A stretch of 64,000 bases of DNA from IMG/VR virus record IMGVR_UViG_3300017435_000003, positions 1,273 through 65,272 of that record, one strand, 5' to 3'. The notes under the pieces are model-generated. The model saw only the letters and a program-made list of their open reading frames with translations, did not search any database and was not told the DNA's origin. Positions 1-11,651 of the stretch are shown here, piece after piece. This DNA is from a virus. Taxonomy: Duplodnaviria > Caudoviricetes. Each line of letters begins with the position of its first letter. Position 1 is the stretch's first letter. Made by a program: the position numbers and the translations under genes.

Positions 1-105
1 CTGCCCCATAGCCTTGTGCGCGAATTGGCGCGCCGCGTACGTGACGAGCGCTACACCGTTAGCGTGATCTTCCGGGATGTTCCCCGGCCCCACCACCACG
101 ATTAA
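1..105 (+). CDS. 3' end of a hypothetical phage protein truncated by the window start
   Basis: Frame 1 is open from base 1 (LPHSLVRELARRVRDERYTVSVIFRDVPRPHHHD) to TAA at 103-105, directly before hammerhead 1. Confidence 0.55.
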   Translation: MPHSLVRELARRVRDERYTVSVIFRDVPRPHHHD

Positions 106-174
106 GGCGAAACCTAGCGGGGCTCCGGCTCTGCGATGGTCGCGCGGGATTGTTCGCCCCGCGCCTGATGAGCC
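106..174 (+). ncRNA. Type II hammerhead ribozyme 1, predicted cleavage after C141
   Basis: GGC-GAAA(109-112)-stem III-GUC(139-141)-stem I GCGCGGG/CCCGCGC-CUGAUGA(165-171)-GCC; loop UGUUC(151-155) is complementary to tail GAACA(175-179). Confidence 0.9.
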
Positions 175-195
175 GAACACGAAAGGGAAACTACC

Positions 196-360
196 ATGGC
201 CGCTACCTCAAGCACGCTTCGCGATCCTAGCCGCTCCCCCATCGCAAAGAGCCGCGCCCTTACGCGCCGCGCCGAACGTCGCGAAAAGAGCGCGCGCCTG
301 TTCCTCGCTTTTGTGTTCCCTGCTGATCTGTCCGGCTTTGCCGCGCCGTTCGCTCGCTGA
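196..360 (+). CDS. Small basic hypothetical protein, 54 aa (not in the ORF track)
   Basis: GAAAGGGAAA RBS then ATG 196; MAATSSTLRDPSRSPIAKSRALTRRAERREKSARLFLAFVFPADLSGFAAPFAR; TGA 358-360, followed by the GGAGG RBS of the next gene. Confidence 0.65.
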   Translation: MAATSSTLRDPSRSPIAKSRALTRRAERREKSARLFLAFVFPADLSGFAAPFAR

Positions 361-376
361 TCTGGAGGCTATGACC

Positions 377-1042
377 ATGGCAAAGCGCTTTCCCACCCCC
401 TCGCATGGCCTTTCCGTCCGGCATCTCGACAGCGAAGCTCGCAACATCGATTGGGGCGACGTTCGCGGCGAATATGACGATGGTTACTCGGTTATACTGC
501 CCGATCCGACCTATGGTGATTGGCAGGAACGCGACAGCAACCCTCCCGCGCGCATTGCAAGGCGCAGCGCGCGTTCGGTCATGAATGACGATGACCGCGC
601 CGAATTCGAGCAGACGGAAGCGCACGACGAATGGCGCGATTCCTTTGAGCCGATGATGAATTACGCGTGGCCTGTGTCGCTTGCTTATGGCGTTGGCCTG
701 AAGGAAGCCGTTGCGCTGATCGAAAGGCATGCGGGCGCTTGCTCGGTGATCGAGTTGAGCGACGAAGCGGGCGAGCGCCTTTATGGCGATGATGCACCGG
801 ATTACATCATCGCTCTGACAGGCGGCGGCATGAACCTAAGCGACCATATCGCCGCCGCATATCTCGCGTTCGGCTGCATTCCTCCCGAACGCGTTCTCTC
901 CGGCCTTGCTGGCGTCATCTCAAAGGAAAAGGCGCGCCGCATACCGTTGCAGGCGGCATATCGCGAAGCATCGAAGCACTACGCTTTGCGCGGCAAGCGG
1001 CTGCGTGAACAGGCGCGGCGCGTCTCCAAGGGGGAATATTGA
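377..1042 (+). CDS. Hypothetical early phage protein
   Basis: 3' part of ORF 77..1042; GGAGG at 364-368 favours ATG 377. Confidence 0.75.
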   Translation: MAKRFPTPSHGLSVRHLDSEARNIDWGDVRGEYDDGYSVILPDPTYGDWQERDSNPPARIARRSARSVMNDDDRAEFEQTEAHDEWRDSFEPMMNYAWPVSLAYGVGLKEAVALIERHAGACSVIELSDEAGERLYGDDAPDYIIALTGGGMNLSDHIAAAYLAFGCIPPERVLSGLAGVISKEKARRIPLQAAYREASKHYALRGKRLREQARRVSKGEY

Positions 1043-1049
1043 TCGCATA

Positions 1050-1113
1050 GGCGAAACCGCGCGCCAGCCGGTGCGCGGTCCAGCCGGGGAGGGCTCCCGG
1101 CTGCTGATGAGCC
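1050..1113 (+). ncRNA. Type II hammerhead ribozyme 2, predicted cleavage after C1080
   Basis: GGC-GAAA(1053-1056)-CCGCGC/GCGCGG stem III-GUC(1078-1080)-stem I CAGCCGGG/CCCGGCUG-CUGAUGA(1104-1110)-GCC; GGGCU(1091-1095) is complementary to tail AGCCC(1114-1118). Confidence 0.92.
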
Positions 1114-1136
1114 AGCCCGACGAATGGGAACGAACG

Positions 1137-1913
1137 ATGAGCGATGTTGAGTTTATGAGGGCGCACGAAGCCGGTTGCGAGTTGCTTGGACGGGGGACCG
1201 GCGTGCCGGAATCGTTGTCCGATCTGGCGGACCATATAACCCGCGTGGTGTGCAACCCATCTGACGGCTTGATTGCCGCGCTGGGCCGCGTTCTGCTGCG
1301 TCACCGCGAAACCGCCCATATTCCAGCCGCGCCGGAAGGCGGCGCTCTTTCTTGCTGCAACGGCGTGGGATGCAGCGACTGCGGCCCCGGCGCGCAAGCG
1401 CTGGCACGCATGGAAGCAACCATGGGCGCGTCGCTTTACGGCTGGCTTGTGGAAGAGATGGGCATGGAGCCGGAGCATTCGGGCGGCGGCTGCGCCATGC
1501 TTCGCCATACGGCTGCAAGCGGCGCTTATCTGCTGGTGACAGATGCGAGCGGGACCGGCTTGCCTGCGATGGATGACTGGTGCGTTGGCGTTTATCCAGC
1601 CGAACCGGGAGGCGGAATCGATGCTTTCGCGCTGCTCTACAGCAATGCAGCGGAGAAAGCGGATTACGGAACGCAGATGACGCTCCGGCAGGCTGTAGCT
1701 GCGGCTTGCGGCATCGCTGCGGAATGGGAAGCGCCAGCCGCTGCGGAACCGTGCGCCTTGGAGATTGGCGCGGCTCTTGTTCGCGATGCCGTCAACTTGC
1801 TCGATGTGGTGGAGCATTGCGACGACGAAGCGCTTGCAGACGGCGTGCTCAAGGTGATGACCGACGACGGGCGCTTGTATCGCGTTGCCGTCACTGTGTT
1901 GGAGGCGCGCTGA
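1137..1913 (+). CDS. Hypothetical early phage protein
   Basis: 3' part of ORF 906..1913; first ATG downstream of the ribozyme; stop overlaps the next start (TGATG). Confidence 0.7.
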   Translation: MSDVEFMRAHEAGCELLGRGTGVPESLSDLADHITRVVCNPSDGLIAALGRVLLRHRETAHIPAAPEGGALSCCNGVGCSDCGPGAQALARMEATMGASLYGWLVEEMGMEPEHSGGGCAMLRHTAASGAYLLVTDASGTGLPAMDDWCVGVYPAEPGGGIDAFALLYSNAAEKADYGTQMTLRQAVAAACGIAAEWEAPAAAEPCALEIGAALVRDAVNLLDVVEHCDDEALADGVLKVMTDDGRLYRVAVTVLEAR

Positions 1914-2251
1914 TGCCCCGCTATTCTGTCCCGCTCACCATCCTAGCAAGCATCACGGTAGACGCGCCGGACGCTGCTTCCGCGCGGAAAGAGGCGGTCC
2001 GCTTTGCGGAGGGACATGGAAGCGACACCGGCTTGTTCATGGACGGCTGGAACGATGTGCAGCGCCAGCACGGATTGCCTACCATCCACGACGTGAGCGG
2101 CTTTGACTGTGAAGGCGTCGAGCTAATGGAGGTGGAAGAGATCGACGACGAGCCGGAGACGTGCACCCATTGCGGCGAGGAGCGGCCCGCTGGTCCGCAA
2201 TCGTCCAGCTGGACCTGCCCGAACAACCATTACAACGCGCCGGAGGCTTGA
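1913..2251 (+). CDS. Hypothetical protein with C-terminal zinc ribbon (CTHC...CPNNH)
   Basis: GGAGG RBS, TGATG overlap, 3' part of ORF 1580..2251. Confidence 0.7.
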   Translation: MPRYSVPLTILASITVDAPDAASARKEAVRFAEGHGSDTGLFMDGWNDVQRQHGLPTIHDVSGFDCEGVELMEVEEIDDEPETCTHCGEERPAGPQSSSWTCPNNHYNAPEA

Positions 2252-2255
2252 GACC

Positions 2256-2687
2256 ATGGCTAAGCAATTCCTTGTTACTGTCACCGCCGAAGCGACCATT
2301 TCAGAGCGCTGGCTTGTTACTGGCGAAAGCGCAAAAGAGGTGCGCGAGCGTTGGGACGCAGAGGATATTCTTTCCCTGCCGGACACCGTTTTCTTGGACG
2401 ATAGCACTCTAGGGAATGAAGCGGAGCGCGAGCTATCCGACGTGGAGCCTTACGAAGCGCCAGATGCACCAGCCTTGCTGACGTTCACCGCCTTTTGTCA
2501 AAAGGCAGGCGCGGCAGGGGGAACGACCTGGATCGAGCAAGTTGAGGCGCGCGACATGTACCACGCTTCGGAGGTCGCGATACTCGCTTGCGCCGATGCC
2601 TGGGAATGTGAAGCCGTAGACATCTGGGTCTTGGGCATTGCCAAGGGAGACGTCGCAATCGTGTCATGGGAGGATCAAAGCGAATAG
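2256..2687 (+). CDS. Hypothetical acidic protein
   Basis: ORF track; GGAGG upstream; TAG abuts hammerhead 3. Confidence 0.7.
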   Translation: MAKQFLVTVTAEATISERWLVTGESAKEVRERWDAEDILSLPDTVFLDDSTLGNEAERELSDVEPYEAPDAPALLTFTAFCQKAGAAGGTTWIEQVEARDMYHASEVAILACADAWECEAVDIWVLGIAKGDVAIVSWEDQSE

Positions 2688-2757
2688 TCGAAACCTAGCG
2701 GGGGCACGCTCCCCCGCGATGGTCGGGCCGCATATGCCGCGCGGCTCCTGATGAGAC
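2687..2757 (+). ncRNA. Type II hammerhead ribozyme 3, predicted cleavage after C2724
   Basis: GUC-GAAA(2690-2693)-stem III-GUC(2722-2724)-stem I GGGCCGC/GCGGCUC-CUGAUGA(2748-2754)-GAC; stem II covaries against copies 1 and 2; loop UGCC(2735-2738) is complementary to tail GGCA(2759-2762). Confidence 0.92.
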
Positions 2758-2779
2758 AGGCACCATAGGGAATTGAACC

Positions 2780-4825
2780 ATGATCGCATCTAACTTCGCC
2801 GCCACTCTGGACCGCGCCGCGCTTGTCGCTGGCCTTAAGCTGTTCGGCAAGGTGGTCTCCAAGCGCAATAGCATCCCCATCCTCTCGCACCTGCTGCTGG
2901 AATGCGACGGCGCGAGCGTGACGCTCACGGGCACCGATCTGGACATCTACGCGAGCGTGACGCTCGACGCGCCTGCAAGCCAGCCGGGAAAGGCGCTGGT
3001 GCCGTGCGATCAAATGGCTTCCGGCTTGGCCAAGAGCAAAGGCGCGACGGTCTCCCTGCAATCCGTCCCTGGTGGCGTGGCGATGACGCTGGAGAACGGC
3101 GCGACAACGCGGCTGGCGACCACATGCGGCCTGGGCGACTGGCCGGAAGCAGTTGTGAAGCTGGGCGACCTGGGCGCGGCTGGTGACTTCGTGGCGGCTG
3201 AGCTTCGGGACGAATGGACGCGCGTGCGGCCTGCGGTCTCGACTGAGGAGACGCGCTATTATCTCAACGGCATTTACGCTTGCCAGCCCTACGGCGGTGG
3301 CATGGCCTGGGCCGCGACCGATGGCCACCGGCTCTGCGAACAGAAGCGCGACCTGCCTGCGGGGATGGCCCTGCCCAACTCGATCATTCCCCGGCTCACG
3401 GTGGATGTGATCCTGGCGGCGCTGGCGAAGGCGAAGGGCACCACGGCGCGCATGGCATTCAGCGCGGGCGCTATGCTCTTCACCCATGGCAATGTGACAA
3501 TCCGCTCCAAGCTGGTGGACGGGGTGTTCCCCGATTACAACCGCGTCATCCCGTCCAGCCGCAATCGCGTGGTGTCGATCGACGCGGGCGCGCTGGCCGA
3601 TGCCGCAACATCGGTTGTCGCGGGCCTGTCCGGCAAGACTCGGGCGGCGCGGTTCTCGATGTCATCGGACGGGCAATGGCTCACTGGCGCGGCGCGGGAT
3701 GCGGACGGCAACGTCTCGGCCATGGTCATCCCCGGCGCGACTGTATCGGGCAATAAGCGCGGAGAGTTCATGTTCGGGGTGAACGCGCCCTACCTCTCCG
3801 GCCTGGCGAAGCTGTTCCCCGGCGATGTGACGCTGGCGACCGGCGATGCTTCCACGCCCATCCTGATGGAATCCACCTCGCTCCCCGGCTTCCGCGCCGT
3901 TGTTATGCCGATGCACTATGACGGGGAGCCGCTTTCCCCGGCTGGCATTGCCGACATGAACAAGCCCGCGCCGACCGCCATGGAGGTGCTGGAGCAGTAC
4001 GGTCCTAAGCACGTTGCGGAACTGGCGGGCTTTCTCCTCCCCGGTGTTCGCCGGATGGTGTCGGTGCACCTGGGGCTCAAGATGCGCGCGGCAATCGACT
4101 ACCTGGGCGGAGATCGCCAAGCAGCGCGCGCGGTGGTCAAGGCGATGGTGGCGCGCATGCAGGGCGACGAAGCGGCGGCGGTGCGGATCGAGCGCGTTGC
4201 CAGCCATGAGCCGGTGACGACGTTCCGCAGCTGGTCGCAAAGCGTTCCTGCCTATGCGGGGCCGGTGTTCAACGTGGTGGAAGAGCCCGCGCCGGTCGCG
4301 CAGCCGGTGCAGAGCCAGCCGGACGACGTGGCGGCGCTCAAGGCGATGATCCTGGACATGGCGGCGCGTCTGGCGCGCGTGGAGGCTGGACAGGCCCTCT
4401 CAGGCCCGCAGACGGCTCCTGGGCGCACTCCGGCGCATGAGGCGGCTATCCGGCGCGCCTGGGCCGAGCGCAGCGCCAGCCGGGCCGCACGGGCGGCGCG
4501 CCAGGATACCGCGAAGCTGTTCGTGGTCGCGGAAGAGACCATCGCCACGGTCACGGCGCAGCGCGATGACTTCGAGCGCATCGCCATCCGCGAGGGCGAG
4601 CGCGCCGATCGGGCGGAAGCCAAGGTGGAAGTGCTGGAGACCCGCGTGGGACGGCTCAAGGCAGTGCTGGCGGGCCGCAAGGCGAAGCTGGTGCAGTATG
4701 CTCGCGAGCTACTGTTCGCCCGCGACCGTGGCGCGCAGTTGCAGCGTGAACTGATCGCAGCGCGCGACGGCAAGGCGAAGCGCTCCAGCGGCACCAGCTT
4801 CTCCATCGGCCGGAAGGCAGGCTGA
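2780..4825 (+). CDS. dnaN: DNA polymerase III beta sliding clamp homolog with long C-terminal coiled-coil extension
   Basis: Clamp motifs SKRNSIPILSHLLL, GTDLD, STEETRYYLNGIY, ATDGHRL, SKLVDGVFPDYNRVIP, AVVMPM; about 300 extra helical residues follow. Confidence 0.88.
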   Translation: MIASNFAATLDRAALVAGLKLFGKVVSKRNSIPILSHLLLECDGASVTLTGTDLDIYASVTLDAPASQPGKALVPCDQMASGLAKSKGATVSLQSVPGGVAMTLENGATTRLATTCGLGDWPEAVVKLGDLGAAGDFVAAELRDEWTRVRPAVSTEETRYYLNGIYACQPYGGGMAWAATDGHRLCEQKRDLPAGMALPNSIIPRLTVDVILAALAKAKGTTARMAFSAGAMLFTHGNVTIRSKLVDGVFPDYNRVIPSSRNRVVSIDAGALADAATSVVAGLSGKTRAARFSMSSDGQWLTGAARDADGNVSAMVIPGATVSGNKRGEFMFGVNAPYLSGLAKLFPGDVTLATGDASTPILMESTSLPGFRAVVMPMHYDGEPLSPAGIADMNKPAPTAMEVLEQYGPKHVAELAGFLLPGVRRMVSVHLGLKMRAAIDYLGGDRQAARAVVKAMVARMQGDEAAAVRIERVASHEPVTTFRSWSQSVPAYAGPVFNVVEEPAPVAQPVQSQPDDVAALKAMILDMAARLARVEAGQALSGPQTAPGRTPAHEAAIRRAWAERSASRAARAARQDTAKLFVVAEETIATVTAQRDDFERIAIREGERADRAEAKVEVLETRVGRLKAVLAGRKAKLVQYARELLFARDRGAQLQRELIAARDGKAKRSSGTSFSIGRKAG

Positions 4826-11302: not shown

Positions 11303-11488
11303 ATGAAGAAACTGAATTTCGCCATCGCTGCAGCCTGCCTTGCGTCCGCTTCACCGGCAGTGGCCTCGCCTGAGCAGGTGCCGGCTACGGTGGCCGAGAA
11401 GGCGCAGGGACGGTGCGGCATCTGGGGATGGCTCGGCTATTGCCAGATGAGCGCACTGCGCCAGCAGGTTGTTGCCACCAATCGATGA
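11303..11488 (+). CDS. Small secreted protein, 61 aa, Sec signal peptide and CGIWGWLGYC loop
   Basis: AAGGA RBS; MKKLNFAIAAACLASASPAVA is a classic signal peptide. Confidence 0.7.
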   Translation: MKKLNFAIAAACLASASPAVASPEQVPATVAEKAQGRCGIWGWLGYCQMSALRQQVVATNR

Positions 11489-11531
11489 CGGTGGCATAGC
11501 CAGCAACGTCGCTGGTGGCCAAGCCGTCGAC

Positions 11532-11573
11532 AAGGGCGGTCGCCGGGGGATCCCAGCGGCCGCCCTTTCTTTT
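11532..11573 (+). terminator. Intrinsic terminator between convergent blocks
   Basis: AAGGGCGGTCGC/GCGGCCGCCCTT stem followed by TCTTTT. Confidence 0.7.
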
Positions 11574-11586
11574 GCCCGCCCCGCGC

Positions 11587-11610
11587 TGCCGTTAATACGC
11601 GCACGCGCGA
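11587..11610. repeat. Direct repeat copy 1 (TGCCGTTAATACGCGCACGCGCGA)
   Basis: 22/24 identical to 16476-16499. Confidence 0.75.
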
Positions 11611-11651
11611 GGACGGGGCCTTCTCGATCTAGCTCGATGCCCCGCCCGTTT

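Follow-up and report, generated by a model that had tools for sequence, protein, structure and literature searches.

Do three short sequences lying between genes at the left end of a phage genome encode self-cleaving RNAs, and would these RNAs divide a multi-gene message into separate mRNAs? We addressed this question in a 64,000-nucleotide stretch of DNA (the window; positions 1,273 to 65,272 of IMG/VR record IMGVR_UViG_3300017435_000003), whose source record is an uncultured tailed phage. The 65-kb genome appears to be siphovirus-like, with a putative plus-strand message running from the left end into replication genes, and its nearest cultured-phage matches suggest an alphaproteobacterial host. 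Hammerhead ribozymes between phage genes have been known since 2011 and the idea that they process transcripts is not new; the kind of element, its arrangement and its proposed role have all been published (Perreault et al., 2011; PMC3088659), and the present locus changes no known picture. Its contribution is a clean example: the three type II ribozymes are canonical and their stems differ from one another, the ribozymes of four syntenic relatives stay in place as the cargo genes change, and the order from stop codon through ribozyme and ribosome-binding site to start codon is fixed. With these features, the locus could reasonably serve to test whether mRNA stability or translation is determined by self-cleavage.

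Three intergenic elements match type II hammerhead ribozymes

We found type II hammerhead ribozymes on the plus (coding) strand between genes at 106–174 (HH1), 1050–1113 (HH2) and 2687–2757 (HH3), exactly where the original prediction had placed them and with the anatomy it described. In the Rfam search that it proposed, the Hammerhead_II model (RF02276) aligned to all three over its whole length (positions 1–66), and HH2 alone exceeded the gathering score, with 45 bits versus 37 bits, a threshold that is an operational and not a biochemical criterion. All three share the core, topology and pseudoknot position of the Rfam family; HH1 and HH3 scored 28.8 and 24.4 bits, below the threshold because, unlike the Rfam consensus, their stem III carries 20–25 additional nt with a UA/GAU internal loop that the consensus does not model. 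This extended form is common among viral contigs, where it was found in 55 stretches. A subfamily covariance model, R2, built from other viral contigs with the window's own sequences left out, scored HH1 at 62.7 bits (E 2e-13), HH2 at 38.7 bits (E 2e-7) and HH3 at 63.4 bits (E 1e-13), and returned nothing beyond these three across the whole 65-kb genome at E≤10. The bare core pattern (CGAAAC..GGTC..CTGATGAG) matched three times in the window compared to 0.00 matches expected from 100 shuffles. Rfam (E≤5) and models R1 and R2 yielded no further hammerheads or other ribozyme classes in the window. Seven other CTGATGA sites in the genome were rejected, as they failed the hammerhead descriptor or, for the three viewed in context, lacked the remaining motif.

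Each copy runs in the order stem II 5′ strand, GAAA, stem III hairpin, GUC, stem I hairpin, CUGAUGA and stem II 3′ strand, with CUGAUGA, GAAA and GUC in the correct order in all three. The invariant core is intact throughout (C3 U4 G5 A6 N7 G8 A9, G12 A13 A14, A15.1-U16.1 and H17); of the core-adjacent pairs, G10.1-C11.1 and A15.1-U16.1 are present in every copy, and pair 1.1-2.1 reads G-C, C-G and G-C. The HH1 feature (104–185, plus strand), identified by both models, its fold and its pseudoknot, comprises stem II at 106–108/172–174, GAAA at 109–112, stem III at 112–140 with the internal loop U115 A116 / G135 A136 U137, stem I at 142–164 and CUGAUGA at 165–171. HH2 (1048–1124, plus strand) has stem II at 1050–1052/1111–1113, an unbroken stem III helix at 1056–1079, stem I at 1081–1103 and CUGAUGA at 1104–1110, and HH3 (2685–2768, plus strand) has stem II at 2687–2689/2755–2757, stem III at 2693–2723 with the internal loop U2696 A2697 / G2718 A2719 U2720, stem I at 2725–2747 and CUGAUGA at 2748–2754. 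Stem II pairs as GGC/GCC in HH1 and HH2 and as GUC/GAC in HH3, and the three stem sets differ in sequence while keeping their pairing, as had been claimed. Loops close stems I and III and leave stem II open in both the model structure line and the folds, giving the type II topology, and minimum-free-energy folding recovered both of these hairpin stems in every copy. Fold analysis likewise agrees with the cleavage sites originally predicted, after C141, C1080 and C2724.

Loop I and the 3′ tail can form a Watson-Crick pseudoknot, a feature typical of type II hammerheads that the original prediction did not describe. The pairing strands are UGUUC/GAACA in HH1 (loop 151–155, tail 175–179), GGGCU/AGCCC in HH2 (loop 1091–1095, tail 1114–1118) and UGCC/GGCA in HH3 (loop 2735–2738, tail 2759–2762). 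These helices of 5, 5 and 4 bp, respectively, lie at the canonical position with an offset of 0–1 past stem II, where background fractions were 0.009, 0.007 and 0.065, for a joint background probability of ~4e-6. This canonical-position test was substituted for a shuffle of the 18-nt tail without positional constraint, in which single copies were not significant (p 0.08–0.25). Many family members with a short loop I lack the loop I/tail pseudoknot. Judged by their sequences, all three elements are genuine type II hammerheads.

Ribozymes occupy the long gaps between gene blocks

The three hammerheads fall within 2.7 kb at the left genome end, on the same strand as the genes having homologues. 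The preceding stop codons have their last bases at 105, 1042 and 2687 and the following starts lie at 196, 1137 and 2780; each element is tightly packed between a stop codon and the ribosome-binding site that comes after it. Among 102 hammerheads of viral contigs, 81% have an open frame of at least 40 codons whose end falls at −15 to +8 of the element, compared to 15% for random same-strand positions. HH1 follows the 3′ end (1–105, plus strand) of a 62-aa ORF (genome 1189–1377), the last of about five small plus-strand ORFs starting near the record's left end, and the TAA stop codon of this ORF (103–105) adjoins the ribozyme. At HH3, the first base of stem II is itself the G of the upstream TAG stop codon. 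On the downstream side of HH1, a Shine-Dalgarno-like purine-rich motif (AAAGGGAA, 182–189, plus strand) lies 6 nt 5′ of the next start codon, and equivalent motifs occur on the same strand at 1124–1130 and 2765–2772. The original prediction also described a strict one-per-junction placement, which fails: about ten same-strand junctions precede the sliding-clamp gene, only three hold a ribozyme, and the remainder are 3–10-nt gaps or overlaps. This phage thus needs no ribozyme at each junction. The ribozyme junctions are the sole gaps near 90 nt among those before the clamp gene.

The segment between HH1 and HH2 (196–1042, plus strand) encodes gA (196–360, 54 aa) and gB (371–1042, 223 aa), which show 52–68% and 50–76% amino acid identity, respectively, with their counterparts in the four syntenic relatives (L079–L082). 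Neither has a Pfam or PHROG match, and gB has 28 homologues, with relatives in Caulobacter and Brevundimonas jumbo phages. The segment between HH2 and HH3 (1137–2687, plus strand) encodes gC (1137–1913), gD (1913–2251) and gE (2256–2687), the last of which matches phrog_29605, a family without assigned function. No usable lead on the function of gA through gE came from Pfam, PHROGs or the ESM Atlas. The first gene after HH3 (2780–4825, plus strand, 681 aa) encodes a DNA polymerase III beta sliding-clamp domain at residues ~6–378 (Pfam PF00712 and PF02767; phrog_947, E 7e-49), followed by ~300 C-terminal residues with no Pfam match. No integrase was found among the ORFs scanned in this apparently complete phage genome.

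Self-cleavage would yield block-length mRNAs

The most likely action of the array is that its three ribozymes cut one long transcript into shorter messages, and we think it probable that genuine type II hammerheads in a single plus-strand message cut it into mRNAs of block length. What we observe is the sequence, fold, covariation and conserved placement of the elements; cleavage in vivo, the single long transcript and the likely purpose of the cuts are what we infer. Transcribed within a message extending from the left genome end into the replication genes, each ribozyme would fold once the 3′ strand of its stem II is made: stems I and III would close as hairpins, the 3-bp stem II would join the two sides, and the 4–5-bp pseudoknot between loop I and the 3′ tail would keep stems I and II parallel. 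Self-cleavage after C141, C1080 and C2724 would then leave four pieces, namely a leader with about five small ORFs, a 939-nt piece with gA and gB, a 1644-nt piece with gC, gD and gE, and a piece headed by the sliding-clamp gene. The type II arrangement means that upstream pieces would end 36–38 nt past a stop codon, their 3′ terminus being the G+C-rich hairpin of stem III with a 2′,3′-cyclic phosphate, and that downstream pieces would start with a 5′-OH and the stem I hairpin, which would probably stay knotted to its tail, 2–8 nt 5′ of the purine-rich ribosome-binding site. Stability and translation context could in this way be set block by block, with no need for host RNase III or RNase E sites or for a promoter at each gene. 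Perreault et al. describe what such arrays are for biologically as not known (PMC3088659), and a 2019 review still treats the question as open for phage hammerheads (PMC6765202).

We infer that the message is early and polycistronic from its position and from the absence of promoter- and terminator-like sites. Between the elements, we found no sigma-70-type promoter on the plus strand and no convincing intrinsic terminator; the promoter scan is weak evidence, as it used only an E. coli-type sigma-70 consensus that may miss promoters of an alphaproteobacterial host. The interpretation in the original prediction is partly supported: self-cleavage dividing a multi-gene mRNA is plausible.

It is unlikely, but has some chance of being right, that the ribozymes chiefly insulate translation and do not set stability. 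A cut 5′ of the ribosome-binding site removes the preceding coding RNA, and the start regions of gA, gC and the clamp gene would always fold alike, uncoupled from upstream ribosomes. Engineered hammerhead insulators act by such upstream cutting. In keeping with this function, each of the 16 hammerheads in the window and the four relatives has a purine-rich motif on its 3′ side, either GAAGGRA or a close variant (for example, UGGAGAA), with an ATG ~5–10 nt further on; 2–8 nt separate the pseudoknot tail from the motif in every case. In the predicted folds of the 3′ products, stem I forms alone at the 5′ end. However, insulation is compatible with division of the message into blocks and is better viewed as a second benefit of the same cut, and it leaves the long conserved stem III on the upstream piece unexplained.

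Conditional cleavage, a possibility raised for phage hammerheads by Perreault et al. (PMC3088659), is improbable. The array would act as a regulated switch, gated by terminating ribosomes or by a factor that binds the UA/GAY loop of stem III, and the relative output of the gene blocks would be regulated during infection. In the first variant, ribosomes that terminate where the stop codon abuts the ribozyme would open stem II together with the base of stem III, keeping the ribozyme unfolded. Across 102 viral hammerheads, the last base of the stop codon was most often at model positions 1–3, touching or overlapping stem II; such tight packing of stop and start may nevertheless be plain genome economy. 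In the second variant, the UA/GAY loop, present in HH1, HH3 and many viral relatives, could dock a phage or host factor. Its distance from the core is exactly 3 bp, and it persists where the adjoining pair flips from C-G to G-C. However, the loop is absent from HH2 and from 30/99 hammerheads of other contigs, within the same arrays, a frequency that is biased because the loop-containing set was gathered with a loop-requiring pattern.

Ribozyme fold and position are conserved while intervening genes vary

Relatives were reached by a protein search with gB followed by contig look-up; IMG/VR searches with the clamp protein, gB and gC gave no usable close relatives. A hammerhead 5′ of the gA/gB block is kept in 4/4 syntenic relatives, and one directly 5′ of the clamp gene is kept in at least three (L080, L081 and L082). 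The genes between these conserved hammerheads, corresponding to the HH2–HH3 block, vary: L079 alone of the four relatives has gC, gD is partly present in both L079 and L080, and gE is missing from all four. This agrees with the expectation that related phages would keep ribozymes at the same junctions while the intervening genes change. The first 71 model-aligned bases of HH2 are identical to those of its L079 orthologue, and a local alignment across the neighbouring gene is 75.6% identical.

Among 57 viral hammerheads of the subfamily, 96% of cells were paired, with a covariation score of 0.643 versus 0.139 when shuffled, and the 16 copies from the window and its four syntenic relatives gave similar values (96.5% paired, covariation score 0.646 versus 0.149). 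The pseudoknot also covaries among orthologous copies. Such compensation between orthologues, seen in every stem and in the pseudoknot, indicates selection on the RNA fold and not on DNA identity. It stands, together with the intact state of every core position in HH1–HH3, against a reading that the varying genes between hammerheads and the arrays of up to ~10 copies in other viral contigs might otherwise favour, namely that the elements are selfish or vestigial, either spreading sequence blocks or cassette recombination joints whose RNA cut has no role. We regard that reading as very improbable, and the recombination-joint version was rejected because gE is gained or lost inside a block and not at a ribozyme boundary.

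Arrays with more copies than the three described here are common in viral metagenomes. The 15-mer CGAAACCTAGCGGGG alone had 17 viral matches, with Rfam-detected hammerheads only in L013; those in L011, L015 and L020 were shown only by a gapped pattern and model R1. An association of the ribozymes with the gB family itself was rejected, as gB homologues without a nearby hammerhead occur in Caulobacter and Brevundimonas jumbo phages, in a 69.5-kb metagenome contig (L083) and in Methylobacterium genomes.

Comparison with known transcript-processing systems

A similar division occurs in phage T7, where RNase III cuts one long early transcript between genes and the resulting stable mRNAs have hairpins at their ends. 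There, a host protein cuts double-stranded hairpins, whereas here the RNA would cut itself and leave other end chemistry; the likeness is one of functional analogy and not of shared membership.

The closest precedent for division of the message by its own ribozymes is the set of clustered hammerheads that flank genes in prophages, for which mRNA processing was proposed, with long phage transcripts cut to single-gene or operon-length mRNAs (Perreault et al., 2011; PMC3088659). Triple arrays were reported in Agrobacterium tumefaciens, Azorhizobium caulinodans and Clostridium scindens; cleavage was shown in vitro for the A. tumefaciens and A. caulinodans prophage arrays, and in E. coli for the former (PMC3088659). 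The present array has in common with these the presence of several hammerheads per ~2–3 kb, on the coding strand, in gaps between genes or blocks of phage origin, as well as flanked genes that are not constant (here, the HH2–HH3 block across the relatives) and alphaproteobacterial hosts (those of two of the tested arrays, and the one suggested for this phage). Unlike the earlier arrays, it has no ardA, its third ribozyme precedes a sliding-clamp gene, and it belongs to an apparently complete tailed-phage genome and not to an integrase-linked prophage. Cleavage has been demonstrated for the earlier arrays and is predicted for the present one. There is next to no chance that the 5′-OH and cyclic-phosphate ends are rejoined by a ribozyme or an RtcB-type ligase into circular or spliced block RNAs: the internal pieces 142–1080 and 1081–2724 would bear both end types, and the HH1 (GCC) and HH2 (GGC) stem II halves would be able to pair if the first piece were circular, but the HH2 (GCC) and HH3 (GUC) halves pair incompletely, and a search by Perreault et al. 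for circular or spliced RNAs from arrays of this kind was negative (PMC3088659).

Three Desulfovibrio vulgaris hammerheads provide a second comparison, in that they are also type II, lie near hypothetical and phage-like genes, and cleave in vivo as detected by cyPhyRNA-seq, yielding 5′-OH and 2′,3′-cyclic phosphate ends that can be captured (PMC8782182). The D. vulgaris trio occupies separate genomic sites (PMC8782182), whereas the present trio falls within one putative operon. The Brevundimonas jumbo phage Gurke, in turn, carries a gB homologue within a group of small, separately expressed genes. Its gaps of ~140 nt hold no ribozyme; each combines a repeated terminator-like hairpin with a TTGACA-type promoter-like motif, and these spacers are a different route to single-gene messages.

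Type II hammerheads HH1-HH3 and their covariation

The trio of type II hammerheads on the + strand of the window, HH1 (104..185), HH2 (1048..1124) and HH3 (2685..2768), is real, well-formed and evolutionarily maintained. At all three sites the stem II 5′ strand, GAAA, the stem III hairpin, GUC, the stem I hairpin, CUGAUGA and the stem II 3′ strand follow in that order, and both this reading of the sequence and full-length alignment to Rfam Hammerhead_II (RF02276) confirm the type II assignment of the original prediction. HH2 scored above the gathering score of 37 (45 bits, 1049-1121); HH1 (28.8 bits, 105-181) and HH3 (24.4 bits, 2686-2765) scored lower because the model treats their 20-25-nt stem III insertions as inserts. 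The bare core pattern matches three times in the window compared to 0.00 expected from 100 shuffles, and at the positions by which Perreault et al. accepted hammerheads, each site has an intact core and standard core-adjacent pairs in all three stems. Minimum-free-energy folds recovered stems I and III in each copy and placed the scissile bond after C141, C1080 and C2724, the cuts originally predicted.

In the type II consensus, loop I forms a pseudoknot with the bases immediately 3′ of stem II (Perreault et al., 2011, PMC3088659), a feature absent from the original prediction. We found it at the consensus position in all three copies, with a different sequence in each: UGUUC 151-155 with GAACA 175-179 in HH1, GGGCU 1091-1095 with AGCCC 1114-1118 in HH2, and UGCC 2735-2738 with GGCA 2759-2762 in HH3. 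With all 8-mers of the window taken as background, helices like these would arise at offset 0-1 with a probability of 0.009, 0.007 and 0.065, respectively (jointly ~4e-6). Because of these pseudoknot tails, the functional elements reach to about 179, 1118 and 2762, a few bases short of the ribosome-binding sites.

A family pattern taken from the stem III base common to HH1 and HH3 (GAAACCUAGC ... GAYGGUC ... CUGANGA) matched 55 stretches in viral contigs. In the family alignment 96% of cells are paired, with a covariation score of 0.643 versus 0.139 for shuffles, and sliding the partners by one to three columns lowers pairing to 35-44%. A covariance model built from 62 family sequences, none from the window (R2), scored HH3 at 63.4, HH1 at 62.7 and HH2 at 38.7 bits, and returned no matches beyond these three across the whole genome at E≤10. 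Although R2 leans to the HH1/HH3 form, its members having been gathered with a motif from those two copies, these scores set HH1-HH3 well apart from random sequence.

In HH1 and HH3, stem III contains a conserved internal loop, 5′-UA / 5′-GAY, exactly 3 bp from the core (115-116 with 135-137 in HH1, 2696-2697 with 2718-2720 in HH3), which the Rfam consensus does not model. An invariant G-C pair closes the loop, and the pair beside it is C-G in some copies and G-C in others. It occurs in 71 of 102 hammerheads from the window and loci L011-L074, a frequency biased by a search pattern that required the loop; it is absent from HH2 and from about 30% of array members. This conserved loop, together with the abutment of stop codons, leaves a small chance that cleavage is regulated.

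Ribozymes bound blocks of genes

The + strand ORFs show a coding-type pattern of G+C by codon position. Among them, gA (196-360) is conserved in three relatives at 52-68% identity, gB (371-1042) has 28 homologues, with relatives also in jumbo phages, gE (2256-2687) matches a PHROG without assigned function, and the gene 3′ of HH3 (2780-4825) encodes a sliding clamp that is extended at its C-terminal end. Only residues about 6-378 of this 681-aa protein match a clamp, and its last ~300 aa gave no family match; the extension is variable, since the clamp genes of relatives span 565 to 989 aa.

The original prediction of one ribozyme per junction did not hold: among ~10 same-strand junctions upstream of the clamp gene, seven are overlaps, 3-10 nt gaps or an uncertain call, and the ribozymes occupy exactly the three gaps of 90-94 nt. 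They bound blocks, not single junctions, separating about five small ORFs, gA and gB, gC (1137-1913), gD (1913-2251) and gE, and the clamp gene and onward. A sigma-70-type promoter scan of the + strand found none, and no convincing terminator lies between HH1 and HH3, absences that fit one long transcript and may be taken as weak evidence for it. The label "early" for this transcript comes from position only.

Position and fold are kept in syntenic relatives

Four contigs syntenic with the window, L079-L082, carry gB homologues of 76, 64, 63 and 50% identity, and R2 found three or four hammerheads in each. One lies just upstream of the gA/gB block in all four, one directly upstream of the clamp gene in L080, L081 and L082, and one after the gB block in L079 and L080, as in the window. 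The genes between them vary: L079 alone has gC, L079 and L080 each have part of gD, all four lack gE, and in L081 and L082 the gB block is followed directly by the clamp gene. In these relatives ribozymes stay at junctions with position and fold kept while the cargo changes, and this comparison, proposed as a check in the original prediction, supports it. Across the 16 elements of the window and these relatives, in an alignment fitted to the model, 96.5% of cells are paired and 14 of 19 pairs changed on both sides; pseudoknot sequences vary as well, with pairing kept. The first 71 model-aligned bases of HH2 (window 1048-1118) are identical to L079 1350-1420, and the local DNA alignment spanning gB, HH2 included, is 75.6% identical. 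The identity of HH2 to its orthologue suggests that the element may be under strong constraint or was recently exchanged.

We found no ribozyme near gB homologues in jumbo phages, a 69.5-kb metagenome contig or Methylobacterium, so the ribozyme association is with the phage lineage and not with the gB gene. Around the gB homologue of Brevundimonas phage vB_BpoS-Gurke (L076, ON529850.1 295010-303672), a repeated spacer of ~120-180 nt lies between nearly all genes, each with a G+C-rich hairpin with a T run, a GTTAACCTTAAC box, a promoter-like TTGACAC ... CCTAGAAGG, and GGAGAC before ATG. These spacers look like per-gene terminator-plus-promoter units; where Gurke has them at its gene gaps, the window phage instead has ribozymes.

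Layout across the viral hammerhead family

Model R1 gave 109 hammerhead matches in the window plus 68 fetched loci; 102 of them were tabulated, after duplicate, end-truncated and very weak matches had been set aside. An open frame of ≥40 codons ends at -15 to +8 of the element in 83 of 102 cases, compared with 15% for randomly chosen positions on the same strand. Its stop codon most commonly abuts or overlaps the first bases of stem II, and an ORF starts ≤60 nt downstream in 83 of 102 (56% at random). Because this tabulation shows the same placement of stop, ribozyme and start, the window layout is the norm for the family. Every tail in the window and its relatives leads into a purine-rich motif, either GAAGGRA or one close to it, and ATG comes about 5-10 nt after this motif.

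Much larger arrays, in which some copies have the stem III loop and others lack it, occur in other viral contigs: about 10 copies in 5.3 kb (L044 6171-11522, - strand), 8 in 3.7 kb (L061 394-4141, - strand), 5 in 2.3 kb (L024 10786-13101) and at least 9 on the contig shared by L026, L034 and L037. Provirus IMGVR_UViG_3300042270_000665 (L013) has two type II hammerheads (2052-2131 and 2887-2970) 800 nt apart with one small gene between them, ~3 kb upstream of a 351-aa ORF adjoining a tRNA gene. This is probably the integrase end, and the pair agrees with the integrase-linked setting reported in 2011 (Perreault et al., PMC3088659).

Proposed mRNA processing

What is shown for the array is its sequence, fold, covariation and placement; the proposed mRNA processing is a reasonable interpretation. 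Hammerhead cleavage leaves a 2′,3′-cyclic phosphate on C17 and a 5′-OH on the next base. Given type II topology, the upstream RNA would retain stem III, which would form a 3′ hairpin 36-38 nt beyond the stop codon, and the downstream RNA would begin with the stem I hairpin, possibly still knotted to the tail, just before the ribosome-binding site. The cleaved halves should part readily because the 3-bp stem II alone joins them. The 3′ hairpin may slow 3′ exonucleases, the 5′-OH and structure could escape 5′-monophosphate-dependent attack by RNase E or RNase J, and each start region would be released from upstream RNA and ribosomes. These proposed effects are in line with the original prediction.

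The trio is an ordinary instance of a known array type, and the processing interpretation is not new. In prophages, a single gene or a short block of genes is often bordered by several hammerheads, and these genes vary; Perreault et al. (2011, PMC3088659), who described this, already proposed processing of long phage transcripts and gave the purpose of arrays as unknown. A 2019 review restates the idea as unproven (PMC6765202), and our literature search found no later paper settling the function of phage hammerhead arrays. Triple arrays of A. tumefaciens, A. caulinodans and C. scindens cleave completely in vitro, that of A. tumefaciens also in E. coli (PMC3088659), and type II hammerheads near phage-like genes of D. 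vulgaris cleave in vivo (PMC8782182).

Phage genome and likely host

The whole IMG/VR record is 65,272 bp, linear, with a CheckV completeness of 100%; the window covers its positions 1273-65272. The window encodes a tape-measure protein, large terminase, portal and major head protein, as well as a DnaB-like helicase, DnaG primase, SNF2 helicase and DNA methyltransferase, a gene content that identifies the phage as tailed and siphovirus-like. The closest cultured-phage matches are Paracoccus, Rhizobium, Brevundimonas and Caulobacter phages, and one flanked gene has a homologue in Methylobacterium genomes; we infer from these that the host is likely alphaproteobacterial. Where the + strand block meets - strand genes, weak, sub-threshold Rfam matches (ar35, Scr6925, sodF sRNA) cluster at 11472-11617, probably a bidirectional terminator-like hairpin region.
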